This document shows positions 2 through 6,187 of a stretch of 18,664 nucleotides of DNA, piece after piece (positions within the stretch are counted from its first letter, which is position 1; each line of letters begins with the position of its first letter). The DNA is taken from the IMG/VR virus record IMGVR_UViG_3300045988_130236; one strand, 5' to 3'. The stretch is from a virus. Taxonomy: Duplodnaviria > Heunggongvirae > Uroviricota > Caudoviricetes. The position numbers and the translations under genes are program-made. Under the pieces are notes generated by a model. The model did no database searches. It saw only the letters and a list, made by a program, of their open reading frames with translations, and had not been told where the DNA came from.

Positions 2-1837
2 GCCTGGGTGGATGCGCATGGCGAGAAAGAATCGCTGTTTACGGATGAGGCGCAGGCTCACCTCTATGGTCATGTTGCTGGCGCTGCACGTGCTTTCAAT
101 ATTTCCCCTCTCTACTGGAAAAAATACCGTAAAGGACAGATGACCACGAGGCAGGCATATTCTGCCATTGCCCGTCTGTTTAACGATGAGTGGTGGACTC
201 ATCAGCTTAAAGGCCAGCGTATGCGCTGGCATGAGGCGTTACTGATAGCTGTCGGGGAGGTCAATAAAGACCGTTCTCCTTATGCCAGTAAACATGCCAT
301 TCGGGATGTGCGTGCACGCCGCCAGGCAAATCTGGAATTTCTTAAATCGTGTGACCTTGAAAACAGGGAAACCGGCGAGCGCATCGACCTTATCAGTAAG
401 GTGATGGGCAGTATTTCTAATCCTGAAATTCGCCGGATGGAGCTGATGAACACCATTGCCGGTATTGAGCGTTACGCCGCCTCAGAGGGTGATGTGGGGA
501 TGTTTATCACGCTTACCGCGCCGTCAAAGTATCACCCGACACGTCAGGTCGGAAAAGGCGAAAGTAAAACCGTCCAGCTAAATCACGGCTGGAATGATGA
601 GGCATTTAATCCAAAGGATGCGCAGCGTTATCTCTGCCGTATCTGGAGCCTGATGCGCACGGCATTCAAGGATAATGATTTACAGGCTTATGGTTTGCGT
701 GTTGTTGAGCCACACCACGACGGAACGCCGCACTGGCATATGATGCTTTTTTGTAATCCACGCCAGCGTAACCAGATTATCGAAATCATGCGTCGCTATG
801 CGCTCAAAGAGGATGGCGACGAAAGAGGAGCCGCGCGAAACCGTTTTCAGGCAAAACACCTTAACCGGGGCGGTGCTGCGGGATATATCGCGAAATACAT
901 CTCAAAAAACATCGACGGCTATGCGCTGGATGGTCAGCTCGATAACGATACCGGCAGGCCGCTGAAAGACACAGCGGCGGCTGTTACCGCATGGGCGTCA
1001 ACGTGGCGCATCCCGCAATTTAAAACGGTTGGCCTGCCGACAATGGGGGCTTACCGTGAACTACGCAAATTGCCTCGCGGCGTCAGCATTGCTGATGAGT
1101 TTGACGAGCGCGTCGAGGCTGCACGCGCCGCCGCAGACAGTGGTGATTTTGCGTTGTATATCAGCGCGCAGGGTGGGGCAAATGTTCCGCGCGATTGTCA
1201 GACTGTCAGAGTCGCCCGTAGCCCGTCGGATGACGTTAACGAGTACGAGGAAGAAGTCGAGAGAGTGGTCGGCATTTACGCGCCGCATCTCGGCGCGCGT
1301 CATATTCATATCACCAGAACCACGGACTGGCGCATTGTGCCGAAAGTGCCGGTCGTTGAGCCTTTGACTTTAAAAAGCGGCATCGCCGCGCCTCGGAGTC
1401 CTGTCAATAACTGTGGAAAGCTCACCGGTGGTGATACTTCGTTACCGGCTCCCACACCTTCTGAACACGCCGCAGCAGTGCTTAATCTGGTTGATGACGG
1501 TGTTATCGAATGGAGTGACCCGGAGGTTGTGAGGGCGCTCAGAGGTGCATTAAAATGCGGACTGAGAACACCAAATCGTCAGCAAAGAAACGGAAGTCCG
1601 TTAAAACCGCATGAAATAGCGCCATCAGCCAGGCTGACCAGGTCGGAACGATTGCAAATTACCCGTATTCGCGTTGATCTTGCTCAGAACGGTATCAGAC
1701 CTCAGCGATGGGAGCTTGAGTCGCTGGCGCGTGGGGCAACCGTAAATTATGACGGGAAAAAATTCACGTATCCGGTCGCTGATGAGTGGCCGGGATATTC
1801 AACTATAACAGAGTGGAATCAATTTGATGACGGGTAA
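2..1837 (+). CDS. A: Rolling-circle replication initiator endonuclease (P2 gpA-like), 5'-truncated by the window edge
   Basis: Frame is open to the window start (codons at 2-4, 5-7), so the gene continues upstream; the ORF track begins at a GTG at 8. Contains an HUH-type motif (TPHWHMM) and the paired catalytic tyrosines GYIAKYISKN (Tyr codons at 884-886 and 896-898), typical of P2 A-type RCR initiators. The ~609 aa seen here fits the C-terminal part of a ~760 aa A protein. Confidence 0.9.
   Translation, partial: AWVDAHGEKESLFTDEAQAHLYGHVAGAARAFNISPLYWKKYRKGQMTTRQAYSAIARLFNDEWWTHQLKGQRMRWHEALLIAVGEVNKDRSPYASKHAIRDVRARRQANLEFLKSCDLENRETGERIDLISKVMGSISNPEIRRMELMNTIAGIERYAASEGDVGMFITLTAPSKYHPTRQVGKGESKTVQLNHGWNDEAFNPKDAQRYLCRIWSLMRTAFKDNDLQAYGLRVVEPHHDGTPHWHMMLFCNPRQRNQIIEIMRRYALKEDGDERGAARNRFQAKHLNRGGAAGYIAKYISKNIDGYALDGQLDNDTGRPLKDTAAAVTAWASTWRIPQFKTVGLPTMGAYRELRKLPRGVSIADEFDERVEAARAAADSGDFALYISAQGGANVPRDCQTVRVARSPSDDVNEYEEEVERVVGIYAPHLGARHIHITRTTDWRIVPKVPVVEPLTLKSGIAAPRSPVNNCGKLTGGDTSLPAPTPSEHAAAVLNLVDDGVIEWSDPEVVRALRGALKCGLRTPNRQQRNGSPLKPHEIAPSARLTRSERLQITRIRVDLAQNGIRPQRWELESLARGATVNYDGKKFTYPVADEWPGYSTITEWNQFDDG
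1388..1407 (+). other. Putative origin of replication nick region inside gene A
   Basis: Sequence gcgcctcggagtcctgtcaa lies inside the A coding region downstream of the catalytic tyrosines. From memory, the P2 ori nick site is in A and has this or a very similar sequence. Recalled, not computed. Confidence 0.4.
1505..1695 (+). repeat. Direct repeat copy 1 (functional 3' end of gene A)
   Basis: atcgaatggagtgacccggaggttgtgagggcgctcagaggtgcattaaaatgcggactgagaacaccaaatcgtcagcaaagaaacggaagtccgttaaaaccgc... recurs with ~90% identity starting at 1837; similarity decays over roughly 190 bp. Confidence 0.85.
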
Positions 1838-2025
1838 TCGAATGGAATGATCCGGCGGTCGTGAGGGCGCTCAGAGGTGCATTAAAACACGGTCTGAGAA
1901 TACCAAATCGTCAGCAAAGAAACGGAAGTCCGTTAAAACCGCTTGCATTTGTGCCATCGCGAGGCTGATCAAATCAGGTTTGTGATAAATTACTAGTATT
2001 TATATAGACCTCGCTCAGTATGGCA
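1837..2025 (+). repeat. Direct repeat copy 2: out-of-frame remnant of an alternative gene A 3' end (pseudo-fragment)
   Basis: atcgaatggaatgatccggcggtcgtgagggcgctcagaggtgcattaaaacacggtctgagaataccaaatcgtcagcaaagaaacggaagtccgttaaaaccgc... starts on the last base of the A stop codon (TAA 1835-1837). It is shifted out of the A frame and hits a stop after 8 codons. Confidence 0.8.
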
Positions 2026-2254
2026 TCACACAGAAGTAATGTAAGCGTGGGGGGCGTGGTGTACCATTGATATACGACGGTCGAAAATTTACATAGCCGA
2101 TTTCCTGTGATTGGTTTTCGTTATGCACTCTTTTCTGAAGAGATTAACTACTGATAGACTCAGGTTGGATGTCAGAATCGCTATAGATTTCTTGCTATAT
2201 ATGTATTTTTCAATGAAAATGATCTCTGATTTAAACTGTAGTAAGGTGATTGGT

Positions 2255-2743
2255 ATGGATGGTTTATGGGAAAAAATATCGTCATATAATATATTTAATA
2301 ATCTTTTTCCAGGTGCTCTTTTTATTTATCTTCTTGAGAGAATGACGAAGATCGTTTTATCTGGCGATGATTTAATAAAAAATGTTGTCCTCTATTATTT
2401 TGTTGGCTTAGTCATTGGCCGGATTGGTTCTATCGTATTGGAACCTTTTTTAAAACTATCGCGTTTGATTAAGTTTGCTCCTTATAAAGATTATGTGTCA
2501 GCATGTGGTGTGGATGGAAAAATTGAAACTTTGCAAGAGATTGCGAATATGTATAGGACGATATTTTCAATGTCAATTATTCTTTTGGCGACATTGTGCG
2601 TTGTAGGACGGTTTACTGGCGAGACATATGGCTTATCTAAAATAACGTTGGCGGTTTTTGCTATTTTGTTTGTTGTCTCATATATTAAACAAATAAGATA
2701 CATAATATATAGAGTAAATGCTGTTAATAATAAGCTGCCGTAA
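2255..2743 (+). CDS. Small multi-pass inner-membrane protein, unknown function (cargo gene)
   Basis: The ORF track starts at 2111, but the ATG at 2255 has the only good SD (aaggtg, 6 nt upstream). About 162 aa with 3-4 hydrophobic helices (LFPGALFIYLL, VVLYYFVGLVIGRIGSIVL, IFSMSIILLATLCVVGRF, ITLAVFAILFVVSYI). Very AT-rich: 14 G+C in 60 nt at 2281-2340. Confidence 0.6.
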   Translation: MDGLWEKISSYNIFNNLFPGALFIYLLERMTKIVLSGDDLIKNVVLYYFVGLVIGRIGSIVLEPFLKLSRLIKFAPYKDYVSACGVDGKIETLQEIANMYRTIFSMSIILLATLCVVGRFTGETYGLSKITLAVFAILFVVSYIKQIRYIIYRVNAVNNKLP

Positions 2744-2751
2744 GGCAGCTT
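2732..2751. terminator. Hairpin between convergent genes (likely bidirectional intrinsic terminator)
   Basis: aagctgcc gtaa ggcagctt followed by ttt; an 8-bp perfect stem with 4-nt loop between the stop of the + membrane gene (2741-2743) and the stop of the - MBL gene (2757-2759). Confidence 0.55.
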
Positions 2752-2756
2752 TTGAA

Positions 2757-3848
2757 TTATTCTTCGGTTCTATAGTTACTAATGTATGATCGTGGAGTGG
2801 CTGTTTTCCATCCTGCCCTTTCAGGAGCATTATAAAAATGGTACTTACCAAGCCCCTCGGTGGCGATAACTTTCGCTCCTCGTCGAGTAAAGGCATTAAT
2901 TACAGCTTGATGGGGATGTTTATCTGAACCTGGGGCACATGATACAAATGCGGTTATCTCCCTTTTTTCGCCTTCATTTACAATGTTACCAACAAGTTTA
3001 TCGAGAACATCAGGGCCTACATTTCTCCGGCTACCATGATGAGGTACTTGAATGAATCTTAATGATTCTTTATTAATGTATTGGGAGGCTTGATCTAAGG
3101 CTGTTATACCAGCATCGCCAGTGAACACTAACGTTCTTCCATCAATCTCAAGTTTCAAAATGACACTTGAGTTATTTTGTGCCGAGGTGGTATCGTCATT
3201 ATCAATACCTTCATCAGTAAACCATTCAGCAACGTAATCAATAAATTTCTTCGTTTTTTCAACTACAGACTCAAAGACTGCTTTTAGTACTTCAAATCCA
3301 GCTGTATCCTCAGCTTTTTTGGGCATTCTTGCGAAATCAGGTATTAGAGTCTCATAGTAAGATTGGGTTGGCCCGATAACAACCAGAGTAGCATTATCCC
3401 AGGTCATTCCTTGAAAAGGCTCTTTTATTTCAATTCCTTTTTTTTCCGCTAATTTGACAGCGTCATAAGCTTTTTGTAAGTTTTCTTTCATTCGATTTGC
3501 AATACTGGCATCAGTTATCCTGCCATCTGCAAACTCACTTGCGAGACCTTGATTATGTTCCCAAGGCTTATGAATCCAAAACTCTTTTACTTCTGCATTT
3601 TCTAGAACAGATGTAAGTCCACCGACGTGGTCACCATCGGGGTGTGTGGAGATAAGCAAGTCAATAGTTTTTGTGCGGTAGTATTTTTCAATATGCTCAA
3701 TGACTTGTTCTCCGGTGCTGGCATATCCTGCATCAATAACGACAACTTTTTGTTCATCTCTTGAACCATGTAGGTTTCCCCATCTGATGCAGATCGCATC
3801 GCCGCTTTTTTTTTCGCCAACAGCTAGAAAATCAATTTCGTAACCCAT
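2757..3848 (-). CDS. Metallo-beta-lactamase-fold hydrolase, ComEC/Rec2-like, predicted nuclease (cargo gene)
   Basis: 363 aa. MBL signature motifs: VVVIDAG, then LLISTHPDGDHVGG (codons at 3627-3644), then FTGDAG and VPHHGS (His-His codons at 3036-3041). SD aagga sits 8 nt upstream of the ATG at 3848. Lower GC than the phage backbone. Confidence 0.8.
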   Translation of the reverse strand: MGYEIDFLAVGEKKSGDAICIRWGNLHGSRDEQKVVVIDAGYASTGEQVIEHIEKYYRTKTIDLLISTHPDGDHVGGLTSVLENAEVKEFWIHKPWEHNQGLASEFADGRITDASIANRMKENLQKAYDAVKLAEKKGIEIKEPFQGMTWDNATLVVIGPTQSYYETLIPDFARMPKKAEDTAGFEVLKAVFESVVEKTKKFIDYVAEWFTDEGIDNDDTTSAQNNSSVILKLEIDGRTLVFTGDAGITALDQASQYINKESLRFIQVPHHGSRRNVGPDVLDKLVGNIVNEGEKREITAFVSCAPGSDKHPHQAVINAFTRRGAKVIATEGLGKYHFYNAPERAGWKTATPRSYISNYRTEE

Positions 3849-4010
3849 TCCATATCCTTATTAAACTGTGAATTAACATGAATCCAAGATGTTAAATCAT
3901 ATGGATAATAACGCAACTTTTCCGCAGTAAACACTGTGAGCGGATTTAATCTCGTCAGAACTAAAAGCAAGTAGTGTGACGAGGGACAATGAGTCTCTTT
4001 GGGGCGTTGG

Positions 4011-4460
4011 CTATGACACTGACGCAACCAGATTAACGCCGTGAGTCAGCAGATTTGTAATCACACCGGCAATGACCCCAGGAGTCCCATCTTTCACCGC
4101 ACTGATCACTTTATCCCCCATCGTTTCATTTCCACCAAGCACCTCGGGTTTTTTGTTAAGAACTGTGAGCGCTTTTTCAGTAAGTCGAACATCGTAAAAA
4201 TACGACTGATGGTCTGTGTTGTACTGAATGTACCCGTTTTCACAGAGAAAATTGAATGTACCTTCAACCACACTACGCAACTGATTTAACGCTTTCATTT
4301 CTGGTGAGTTAAGTTGGTCAAAGTAGTCATCAGGTAGCGCGGCGTTAAATTTGTCGTAGTTAATCACCTGTGGTACGGGAAAATTTTCCCATAGTACTGC
4401 AAAGATTTCCGCCGTTTGTTGGTTAAATAAATCGAGATTTTTCGACATGCAAAATTCCAT
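4011..4460 (-). CDS. Hypothetical cytoplasmic protein, first gene of the cargo operon upstream of the MBL gene; start ambiguous
   Basis: Open frame 4011-4550 (179 aa) with in-frame ATGs at 4550, 4460 and 4448; none has a strong SD. No TM segments, no Walker or other motif I recognise. Same strand as the MBL gene, 162 bp upstream of it. Confidence 0.5.
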   Translation of the reverse strand: MEFCMSKNLDLFNQQTAEIFAVLWENFPVPQVINYDKFNAALPDDYFDQLNSPEMKALNQLRSVVEGTFNFLCENGYIQYNTDHQSYFYDVRLTEKALTVLNKKPEVLGGNETMGDKVISAVKDGTPGVIAGVITNLLTHGVNLVASVS

Positions 4461-4781
4461 TTCTTTTGATAATGAGTGGGTTAAACGCTGGACGAGGCAG
4501 ATTACCACTCTGGCACAAAACAATGATCTTAGTTCACGCGAAGTTGACATATATACCGATAAGCTGGTTGCGCAGGCAACTAGCGTAGAACTCGCTCAGG
4601 TCATCAAGATGCTATTGAATTATATTCGAATGCACAAATAAAATGATCTGTATCAATCTGTTAGGTGTCGTTTGTAAAAATGTGTGGACACGATTGTTCT
4701 GCTAATTGTTGTCAACATGTGCGTCAACAGTGAGATTGGTGCATTGCGCGGCCAGTGACAACTTTAAAAATTGGCCAAAAC

Positions 4782-4806
4782 CGGCACTATGAATGCCGTT
4801 TTTTTT
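4782..4806 (+). terminator. Intrinsic terminator-like hairpin plus T8 tract
   Basis: cggca ctatgaa tgccg followed by tttttttt (4799-4806) and preceded by aaaa; could also act on the minus strand. Sits between the cargo operon upstream region and cos. Confidence 0.4.
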
Positions 4807-4840
4807 GTGTTTTTTTCTGCGATACTCCTATTTTTAGCAG

Positions 4841-4886
4841 TGCATGCAATATGTGCGTGGTTTTGCATGTGCCTAAGTTGCATGTT
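4841..4886. repeat. Cluster of TGCATG(T/C) repeats adjacent to cos (possible terminase recognition elements)
   Basis: tgcatgc at 4841-4847, tgcatgt at 4865-4871 and 4880-4886, with a related gcacctgcat at 4931-4940, all within ~130 bp of cos. Confidence 0.3.
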
Positions 4887-4964
4887 CTGGCTGTGCACCG
4901 TCAGGACGGACGCCCCTCAAAAGTGGTAATGCACCTGCATTAAAACCGACCTATGAAGCGGGCG

Positions 4965-4983
4965 GGCGAGGCGGGGAAAGCAC
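4965..4983. other. cos: cos site (19-nt cohesive end sequence of P2-type phages)
   Basis: ggcgaggcggggaaagcac matches the P2 cohesive-end sequence as I recall it. Position is as expected: between the non-essential cargo region and the 3' end of portal gene Q. Confidence 0.6.
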
Positions 4984-5124
4984 TGCGCGCTGGCGGTGGT
5001 GCTGATTTTATTTTTTCAGCGTCTGAGCGCGTCGTGAAGGCGCTTAGTCTGCCCGTTGAGGCGTTGGTGTGTCTGCGGGGTGTTTTGTGCGGTGGTGAGC
5101 GTGTGAGCGCGTGATGACGGGGTG

Positions 5125-5148
5125 TAAAAAAGCCGCCCGCAGGCGGCG
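5125..5148 (-). terminator. Rho-independent terminator downstream of Q (end of the leftward P-Q late operon)
   Basis: On the minus strand: stem gccgcc/ggcggc with loop (plus 5132-5147) followed by a T6 run (plus-strand aaaaaa at 5126-5131), directly after the Q stop at 5153-5155. Confidence 0.6.
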
Positions 5149-5152
5149 ATGT

Positions 5153-6187
5153 TCAGCCGTTGTCAGTGTCCAGTGAGTAGTTTTTAAAGCGGATGACCTC
5201 CTGACCGAGCCAGCCGTTTATCTCGCGGATCCTGTCCTGTAGCGGGATAAGCTCATTGCGGACAAAGACCTTTGCCACTTTCTCAATATCACCCAGCGAC
5301 CCGACGTTCTCCGGCTTGCCGCCCATCAACTGAAAGGGGATGCGGTGCGCGTCCAGCAGGTCAGCGGCGCTGGCTTTTTTGATATTAAAAAAATCGTCCT
5401 TCGTTGCCACTTCACTGAGCGGGATAATTTTAATGCCGTCGGCTTTCCCCTGCGGGGCATAGAGAAACAGATTTTTAAAGTTGTTGCGGCCTTTCGACTT
5501 GACCATGTTTTCGCGAAGCATTTCGATATCGTTGCGATCCTGCACGGCATCGGTGACGTACATGATATATCCGGCATGAGCGCCGTTTTCGTAATACTTG
5601 CGGCGGAACAGCGTGGCCGACTCATTCAGCCAGGCAGAATTAAGGGCGCTGAGATATTCCGGCAGGCCGTACAGCTCCTGATTAATATCCGGCTCCAGCA
5701 GGTGAAACACGGAGCCGGGCGCGAAGGCTGTCGGCTCGTTGAAGGACGGCACCCACCAGTAAACATCCTCCTCCACGCCACGGCGGGTATATTTTGCCGG
5801 TGAGGTTTCCAGTCTGATGACCTTACCGGTGGTGCTGTAACGCTTTTCCAGAAACGCATTACCGAACACCAGAAAATCCAGCACAAAGCGGCTGAAATCC
5901 TGCTGGGAAAGCCACGGGTGCGGAATAAACGTTGAAGCCAGAATATTACGTTTGACGTAAATCGGTGAGCTGTGATGTACGGCAGCACGCAGGCTTTTTG
6001 CCAGACCGGTAAAGCTGACCGGTGGCTCATACCATCTGCCGTTACTGATGCACTCGACGTAATCCAGAATGTCACGGCGGTCGAGTACCGGCACCGGTTC
6101 ACCAAAGGTGAATGCCTCCATTTTCGGGGCGCTGGCGGTCATTTTTTTTGCCGCAGGTTGCGGTGTTTTCCCTTTTTTCTTGCTCAT
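5153..6187 (-). CDS. Q: Portal protein (P2 gpQ-like)
   Basis: 344 aa, starts MSKKKGKTPQPAAKK; length and sequence fit P2 Q. Its start overlaps the P stop (TGATG). Confidence 0.92.
   Translation of the reverse strand: MSKKKGKTPQPAAKKMTASAPKMEAFTFGEPVPVLDRRDILDYVECISNGRWYEPPVSFTGLAKSLRAAVHHSSPIYVKRNILASTFIPHPWLSQQDFSRFVLDFLVFGNAFLEKRYSTTGKVIRLETSPAKYTRRGVEEDVYWWVPSFNEPTAFAPGSVFHLLEPDINQELYGLPEYLSALNSAWLNESATLFRRKYYENGAHAGYIMYVTDAVQDRNDIEMLRENMVKSKGRNNFKNLFLYAPQGKADGIKIIPLSEVATKDDFFNIKKASAADLLDAHRIPFQLMGGKPENVGSLGDIEKVAKVFVRNELIPLQDRIREINGWLGQEVIRFKNYSLDTDNG

Follow-up and report, generated by a model that had tools for sequence, protein, structure and literature searches.

A P2-like prophage of Escherichia coli carries two converging genes, one for a small protein with four transmembrane (TM) helices and one for an enzyme with a metallo-beta-lactamase (MBL) fold, which may together form a two-gene abortive-infection system. 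Both genes lie in an 18,664-nucleotide stretch of DNA (IMG/VR record IMGVR_UViG_3300045988_130236, Caudoviricetes), the whole of which is called the window here. In the proposed mechanism, the cytoplasmic MBL enzyme would detect the infection and would pass the signal on to the four-helix protein at its cytoplasmic face; the two would touch directly, or a small product of hydrolysis would carry the message between them. The four-helix protein would then compromise the inner membrane, and the infection would be aborted. A probability of about 45% is given to this reading, in which the MBL senses or activates and the membrane protein damages the inner membrane. By analogy, the pair is best understood as a conjugation-less "type I" relative of 6A-MBL, a system in which an MBL is accompanied by an E2-E1-JAB protein (Cap2_3). 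We infer the defence activity, the roles of sensor and killer, and the nature of the signal.

The linkage between the membrane protein and the MBL is near-obligate. In a sample of 79 genome loci across phyla, which were searched with an iterated MBL profile, an MBL or E2-E1-JAB gene was adjacent or within three genes at 76. The membrane gene is followed by the MBL gene on the same strand at 44 loci, with gaps of 0–30 nt or an overlap, and the order is reversed, again on the same strand, at 14. At 12 loci, the E2-E1-JAB protein is encoded directly upstream of the membrane gene, and in 10 of these it is itself preceded by an MBL. Two loci are convergent, and four have an MBL within three genes (in one of them an insertion sequence element lies between the two genes). 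No MBL was found at three loci, two of which are at contig ends. On phage contigs, nearly every locus of this clade with a full-length MBL has an adjacent protein with 3–4 TM helices, and the pair is widespread in prophages and mobile elements.

This linkage bears directly on an idea raised in an earlier, sequence-only reading of the window, namely that the membrane protein is a stand-alone abortive-infection or superinfection-exclusion effector. The MBL would then be an unrelated neighbour. Such an arrangement would suit the P2-type loci, where the two genes converge and have separate promoters. However, the convergent layout is limited to enterobacterial P2-type loci (also in Yersinia), one genome locus (L073) and one viral contig (L120). 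Elsewhere the genes are mostly co-directional and overlapping, and the 76 linked loci make a protein that works alone very improbable.

Both proteins of the window match a catalogued candidate system. The membrane protein matches the PADLOC profile PDC-M48A (PDLC04670) with E 9.5e-51, residues 1–159 being aligned to positions 1–162 of the 164 in the profile, and PHROG 11864 with E 1e-97. Searches of Pfam and NCBIfam up to E 1 gave only noise and no family for it. The MBL matches PDC-M48B (PDLC04676) over its full length with E 7.4e-101. Since the window proteins match the A and B models full length and their genes are adjacent, the locus belongs to PDC-M48 (PADLOC-DB v2). Members of PDC-M48 are mostly co-directional and often overlap, whereas the window pair is convergent with a common terminator. 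As multi-gene candidates for phage defence, the PDC-M systems were picked out through guilt-by-embedding, from within BREX, DISARM or type I restriction-modification (R-M) loci (bioRxiv 10.1101/2024.01.29.577857), and the 145 PDC systems are called untested by their authors (Payne et al., bioRxiv 10.1101/2024.01.29.577857). No mention of PDC-M48 was found in the literature search, and no sign of a test of the pair was seen in the texts of Rousset 2022, Vassallo 2022, DefensePredictor and the domain-centric screen.

The membrane protein has four TM helices, and both of its termini are inside the cell (N-in/C-in). The earlier description of a small protein with 3–4 TM segments is thereby borne out, and the topology prediction that had been proposed as a check gave this result. 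In the Kyte-Doolittle profile, three hydrophobic segments are strong and a fourth, at the N-terminus, is weaker. The AlphaFold2 (AF2) model, built with 32 homologues, has a predicted local distance difference test score (pLDDT) of 89.4 and a predicted template modelling score (pTM) of 0.82. It comprises four long helices (11–31, 40–68, 89–121 and 126–157) and a short helix at 77–86. The orientation follows from the distribution of lysine and arginine across the loops: the family-wide mean number of these residues is 0.5 in loop 32–39 and 0.3 in loop 122–125, as compared with 6.2 in loop 63–100 and 4.2 in the C-terminal tail. The periplasmic loops, of only 8 and 4 residues, show the lowest conservation in the protein. 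The invariant residues are K7, S9-S10-Y11, N15, R56, G58-S59, E63-P64, N98, Y100-R101-T102, Y143 and K145-Q146, and the conserved residues are all located at the cytoplasmic ends of the helices. Because conservation is confined to the cytoplasmic side and the periplasmic loops are tiny and variable, the input to the membrane protein probably comes from the cytoplasm.

The family of this protein is large, with 1218 representatives at 50% identity in a library of 1.84 billion proteins, and it extends over Proteobacteria, Bacteroidota, Firmicutes, Nitrospirota, Planctomycetota, candidate phyla and some methanogens. The best 150 of the 1218 representatives are all stand-alone proteins of 158–216 aa, and no natural fusion that would give a partner domain was found among them. 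When the AF2 model was compared with the PDB using Foldseek, only generic helical bundles were returned (best E 0.78). The name "phosphohistidine phosphatase", which many family members carry at NCBI, was rejected, as the protein is a four-TM bundle with no phosphatase match in Pfam or NCBIfam.

The E2-E1-JAB protein found upstream of the membrane gene ties this family to 6A-MBL. It is about 770 aa long, contains Prok-E2_A, ThiF and Prok-JAB domains, and reaches 513 bits on the NCBIfam model for the 6A-MBL cap2_3 protein (NF058523, cut-off 320). The MBL that precedes it reaches 358–397 bits on the model for the "6A-MBL system MBL-fold protein" (NF058524, cut-off 220). The combination of an MBL with E2-E1-JAB was described as operon type 6a, with "usually two genes" (Iyer et al. 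2006). 6A-MBL is cited as a validated system that is active against jumbo phages. The Corbett laboratory regards it as an MBL pathway related to the type II form of CBASS, the antiphage signalling system that is based on cyclic oligonucleotides.

A second sample was collected by means of the E2-E1-JAB protein, which limits the bias towards the membrane protein. It consists of 79 metagenomic loci (L156–L234), 66 of which had room downstream, and its queries were themselves taken from operons with the PDC-M48A family. In these 66 operons, which count as bona fide 6A-MBL by exceeding the NCBIfam cut-offs, the gene that follows E2-E1-JAB belongs to the PDC-M48A family in 11 and to one of two other 4-TM families, B and C, in 26. 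It encodes a patatin-like phospholipase of about 430 aa in eight (Pfam E down to 4e-19) and a second MBL in four, where a TM gene often comes next. Other genes were found in seven operons and nothing close in ten. Hence, in at least 45 of the 66 6A-MBL operons, the third gene encodes either a patatin or a 4-TM protein from one of the three families; examples are L190 6135–7439, L169 6168–6797 and L158 6358–7089. The definitions of 6A-MBL in the literature and in NCBIfam and PADLOC have two genes and no membrane component, and neither library has a model for the third-gene proteins.

In Vibrio, in Chromobacterium and on many phage contigs, families B and C are also paired with M48B-type MBLs, no E2-E1-JAB being present. 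They have the same 2+2 TM plan as the PDC-M48A family; no homology between that family and families B or C was detected by profile-profile comparison (probability below 1%). Between B and C themselves, the same kind of comparison gave 74%, so that a relationship of these two is possible. The MBL of 6A-MBL belongs to a sister clade of the window MBL, and the two systems are joined in composite operons (L021, L161, L187–L189, L213, L214, L224 and L230). In these, a 6A-type MBL and E2-E1-JAB come first, and after them a TM or patatin gene and a second MBL, which is of the PDC-M48B type.

In 6A-MBL operons, four unrelated or distantly related proteins thus rotate through the third-gene slot, while the enzymes stay constant. 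Variable operon slots are the effector slots in CBASS and Pycsar systems, and the membrane effectors typical of CBASS are patatins and small TM proteins. To our knowledge, patatin phospholipase is a membrane-destroying effector and never a sensor. Since the membrane protein has its slot in common with patatin and other 4-TM proteins, it would be a membrane-attacking effector. The sequence-only reading had also suggested that the protein could be the membrane-disrupting arm of a multi-gene system. The multi-gene part of this suggestion agrees with the PDC-M48A/B matches and the linkage at 76 of the 79 loci, and the patatin slot points in the same direction; the effector role is the part that we infer.

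At two Nitrospirales loci (L005 and L049), a WYL-domain protein (Pfam E 1.9e-16) is encoded just upstream of the membrane gene, in the interval that separates it from a divergent 6A-MBL pair. It is possibly a transcriptional regulator of the system there.

The MBL of the window has neither a signal peptide nor a TM segment and is therefore taken to be cytoplasmic. Its metal-binding site is intact, as all of the ligands are kept: D39, H69-x-D71-x-D73-H74, D245, H270-H271 and H311 are invariant. The match to Pfam Lactamase_B has E 6.8e-12, and the AF2 model has a pLDDT of 87. In both sequence and fold, the nearest solved relatives are the beta-lactamase-like domains of ComEC (best 9ic4, E 2.4e-13). 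Among the structural matches, Pce, the phosphorylcholine esterase of pneumococcus, comes next, ahead of the nucleases RNase J, CPSF73 and Integrator. Weaker PADLOC matches connect the enzyme with LmuA-MBL of Lamassu (2e-29), the MBL associated with reverse transcriptases of the DRT systems (3e-20) and Avs1a (2.5e-14).

These relatives suggest a different division of labour, which is the main rival reading and is possible though rather doubtful: the MBL would be a ComEC-like nuclease effector that acts on phage or cell DNA, and the four-TM protein would be its anchor, regulator or sensor. The nuclease would be held at the site of phage DNA entry in the inner membrane, or it would be freed on infection, in the manner of Kiwa, Zorya or ComEC. 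The best sequence and structure matches to ComEC domains, the ComEC-type H-x-D-x-D-H motif with its other invariant metal ligands, and the matches to the effector MBLs of Lamassu, Avs1 and DRT all speak for it, and the overlap of the genes at most loci suggests a stoichiometric complex. Kiwa and Zorya consist of a membrane sensor and a cytoplasmic DNA-targeting effector, so that a small multi-TM protein next to a cytoplasmic nucleic-acid enzyme would offer a possible analogy. However, no PADLOC match to KwaA/KwaB or ZorA–D was obtained, and the membrane protein has no periplasmic domain. The likeness to ComEC/Rec2, which lies in an MBL closest to the ComEC C-terminal nuclease domain and paired with a membrane protein, is likewise partial, as the window MBL lacks the competence channel domain and the membrane protein lacks a Pfam match. 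Three further observations oppose a nuclease held by an anchor or sensor. The same operon slot is taken by patatin, an effector that is neither sensor nor anchor; the almost complete lack of periplasmic exposure and the cytoplasmic-only conservation argue against sensing beyond the cytoplasm; and the MBL of 6A-MBL carries a conjugation tail, as does the sensor enzyme of type II CBASS.

The tail just mentioned is also what separates the two kinds of MBL. In 49 6A-type MBLs (L156–L230), from whose operons the criterion of a Gly-rich C-terminal tail was derived here, the tails are ubiquitin-like and rich in Gly, Ala and Ser, and a Gly stands at the C-terminus or within about 6 residues of it in essentially all. 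Typical endings are TYG, QG and RAG, and 22 of the 49 end exactly in Gly. By analogy with the CD-NTases (nucleotidyltransferases that resemble cGAS and DncV) of type II CBASS, a tail of this kind has the form expected of a substrate for JAB trimming and E1 adenylation. The MBLs that lie beside the membrane protein and lack E2-E1-JAB have endings such as the acidic PYPEEQEE and YLGTLNL, and the window MBL ends in ...SNYRTEE, with no Gly-rich tail. It also reaches only 33.9 bits on NF058524 against the cut-off of 220, and E2, ThiF and JAB domains are absent from the three annotated genes of the locus. Because of this difference in the tails, the P2 pair would be to 6A-MBL what type I CBASS is to type II.

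The likeness of 6A-MBL and PDC-M48 to CBASS includes an enzyme, an optional E2-E1 and JAB apparatus that conjugates the C-terminus of that enzyme, and a variable effector slot. There are also differences. No CD-NTase match was found among the proteins of the locus in Pfam, NCBIfam or PADLOC, and PADLOC gave no homology to CBASS effectors. The window enzyme is a hydrolase, so a signal would be produced by cleavage, not by cyclisation. If the analogy is carried further, the MBLs of the M48B and 6A clades would make a cleavage-derived messenger that gates interchangeable effectors (three 4-TM families or patatin) as in CBASS, and the P2 pair would be the minimal form; this extension is speculative and on balance unlikely.

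Several points weigh against a sensing MBL and a membrane-damaging partner. No experiment on PDC-M48 is reported. No similarity of the membrane protein to known pore-forming proteins or to the TM effectors of CBASS and Pycsar was detected with Pfam, PADLOC or Foldseek against the PDB. We know of no signalling chemistry for an MBL-fold enzyme. The composite operons, which keep both types of MBL, are left unexplained by a simple analogy with type I and type II. In addition, MBL modules akin to this one are regarded as the effectors of Lamassu, Avs1, DRT and HamMAB (PMC13069673). Given this view of its relatives, and with the ComEC nuclease domain as the closest structure, the MBL itself may be the killing arm.

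Table 1. Features of the window in and around the two-gene locus.
Position	Strand	Feature	Basis or remark
~1817–2120	+	Decayed duplicate of the gpA 3' end (source 1484–1790)	Direct repeat and pairwise alignment
1838–5152		gpA-cos-Q hotspot	Cassette between gpA and portal
2192–2220	+	Sigma-70 promoter candidate	-35 TTGCTA 2192–2197, 17-nt spacer, -10 GAAAAT 2215–2220
2243–2248	+	Shine-Dalgarno sequence AAGGTG	6 nt before ATG; purine-rich block kept in variants
2255–2743	+	Gene for the 162-aa four-TM inner-membrane protein, PDC-M48A family, phrog_11864, WP_001752365	PADLOC, PHROG, AF2
2731–2752	both	Bidirectional terminator-like hairpin, common to both genes	AAGCTGCC-GTAA-GGCAGCTT, 8-bp GC-rich stem
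2757–3848	-	Gene for the 363-aa ComEC-like MBL-fold phosphodiesterase, PDC-M48B, WP_001752366	PADLOC, Pfam, AF2
4011–4448	-	Gene for a 145-aa protein, phrog_2266, WP_001752367	No domain match; mechanical open reading frame reaches 4550
4782–4806	+	Strong terminator-like hairpin	Cos-proximal non-coding region
4965–4983		Cohesive-end 19-mer	Exact match
5132–5147	-	Strong terminator-like hairpin	After portal gene
5153–6187	-	Portal gene Q	Followed by terminase

The open reading frame of the membrane protein is a real gene, and its description from the letters alone is upheld apart from some corrections. Its ATG with a Shine-Dalgarno sequence (Table 1) was described correctly. The N-terminus MDGLWEKISSYN lines up with the starts of homologues, and since these begin at the same place, the ATG at 2255 and not the mechanical TTG at 2111 is taken as the start. 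The gene is AT-rich and foreign-looking: its G+C content is 32.3% (28% at third codon positions), as compared with 53% in gpA and 56% in the rest of the phage. The value of about 23% that had been given for sampled stretches holds only locally, 60-nt windows ranging from 18 to 47%.

The gene had also been credited with a promoter-like region of its own in the AT-rich spacer at 1966–2254. The G+C content of this spacer is 36.7%, and about half of it derives from a degenerate second copy of the gpA 3' end. A scan of the spacer for the sigma-70 consensus gave nothing above the threshold, and sites in the region numbered 4 as compared with 8.4 in shuffled sequences. Nevertheless, TTGCTA and GAAAAT are the only upstream blocks that are conserved among the otherwise diverged P2-type variants. 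Because of this conservation, 2192–2220 is the probable promoter of the membrane-protein gene, with a predicted start near 2227, although it agrees with the consensus at only 8 of 12 positions and is under the scan threshold. For the MBL gene, the aligned upstream regions gave no convincing conserved hexamers.

As had been noticed before, the MBL gene converges on the membrane-protein gene and shares a hairpin terminator with it. The two genes end 13 nt apart, and the 5' arm and the loop of the hairpin are formed by the last codons of the open reading frame (K-L-P-stop), the stop codon included. The hairpin folds on both strands, with -17.7 and -14.4 kcal/mol and z-scores of -3.6 and -3.5 relative to shuffles. 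Diverged variants retain it, the changes in Huaxiibacter (L004) being compensatory, and a different hairpin occupies the equivalent position in Yersinia (L089).

The window agrees at 100% identity with the chromosome of E. coli strain 5444, and by its sequence it is a P2-like prophage of this species. The gene for the replication endonuclease gpA ends at 1837, and the portal gene Q and then the terminase lie 3' of the cargo. Between cargo and portal, there is an exact match to the 19-mer GGCGAGGCGGGGAAAGCAC, the cohesive-end sequence of P2, which places cos there. From the end of gpA, this 19-mer and the portal gene, the intervening cassette is identified as the gpA-cos-Q hotspot. It holds three RefSeq genes (WP_001752365, WP_001752366 and WP_001752367), and precisely these three make up one of the hotspot arrangements in Table S5 of Rousset (PMC9122126). 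In P2, the hotspot is occupied by old and tin, and it is documented as a place where anti-phage systems accumulate (PMC9122126; PMC9519451).

Non-defence cargo is also present in P2 hotspots (PMC9122126), and the pair could be of this kind, either as an addiction module resembling a toxin-antitoxin system or as an envelope-modifying pair whose MBL phosphodiesterase acts on a lipid or surface substrate. Pce, the second-best structural match of the MBL, would agree with the latter, and no phenotype is reported for the pair. On the other hand, the MBL is cytoplasmic, the family was recovered from within BREX, DISARM or type I R-M loci, and it is tied to the validated 6A-MBL system and is widespread in prophages and mobile elements, all of which make a role outside defence quite unlikely.

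Near-identical cassettes are present in 23 of 5,426 complete E. coli genomes, and the exact 162-aa protein was found on 215 contigs. The isolated Peduovirus phages 12W, D8, 11W and P24E6b carry a 73%-identical version with the identical layout. At the left edge of the cassette lies the decayed gpA duplicate. Its best stretch is a direct repeat of 125 nt with 89% identity (1502–1626 and 1834–1958), and the homology of the copies fades near 2120 in a pairwise alignment of 1470–1840 with 1803–2260. The duplicate looks like a scar left by cassette exchange through recombination within gpA. It is no part of the function of the system. In the 90%-identity cluster of the exact protein, the representative is a 364-aa "replication endonuclease, partial", and fragments of gpA are numerous. 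This odd cluster is probably due to gene calls that start in the gpA remnant and continue into the membrane-protein gene, and cluster-level names are therefore unreliable for the 162-aa protein. The strong hairpins after the portal gene and in the cos-proximal non-coding region (Table 1) would insulate the cargo from read-through of the late operon.

The third gene of the hotspot was rejected as a member of the system, since it occurs with unrelated cargo and is absent from several loci that have the pair. In the Klebsiella phage ST147-VIM1phi7.1, for instance, a phrog_2266 gene adjoins a retron-type reverse transcriptase, and the pair is absent there. The gene seems to be a hotspot-border gene outside the system. 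What had been called a "convergent operon" facing the membrane-protein gene is accordingly reduced to the MBL gene.

Three database names are misleading for these proteins. Besides "phosphohistidine phosphatase", the name "ComEC/Rec2 competence protein" given to the MBL by the NCBI annotation pipeline (PGAP) was rejected: the enzyme reaches 49.2 bits on TIGR00361 against a cut-off of 190, only positions 558–660 of the profile were matched, and the name is a domain-level carry-over. PHROG 7043, which is also matched by the MBL, is labelled "tail protein"; its profile has 1077 positions and apparently comes from a fusion.

The gene family and its pairing with the MBL are already known, as they are catalogued in PADLOC, PHROGs and the table of Rousset. 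In the searched literature and model collections, no statement was found of the link between PDC-M48 and 6A-MBL, of the third gene that recurs in 6A-MBL operons, of the equivalence of the patatin slot or of the difference in the MBL tails. If these relations are true, a third component of the validated 6A-MBL system has been overlooked, namely a membrane effector that lies outside the NCBIfam and PADLOC definitions, and PDC-M48 is a conjugation-free form of 6A-MBL. An MBL hydrolase would then occupy the position of the CBASS cyclase, which raises the question of how a hydrolase signals to a membrane protein. At 1.6 kb, the pair is compact, and it is native to a prophage of a model organism and present in clinical E. 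coli lineages. It is thus a convenient and tractable entry point to a widespread family.

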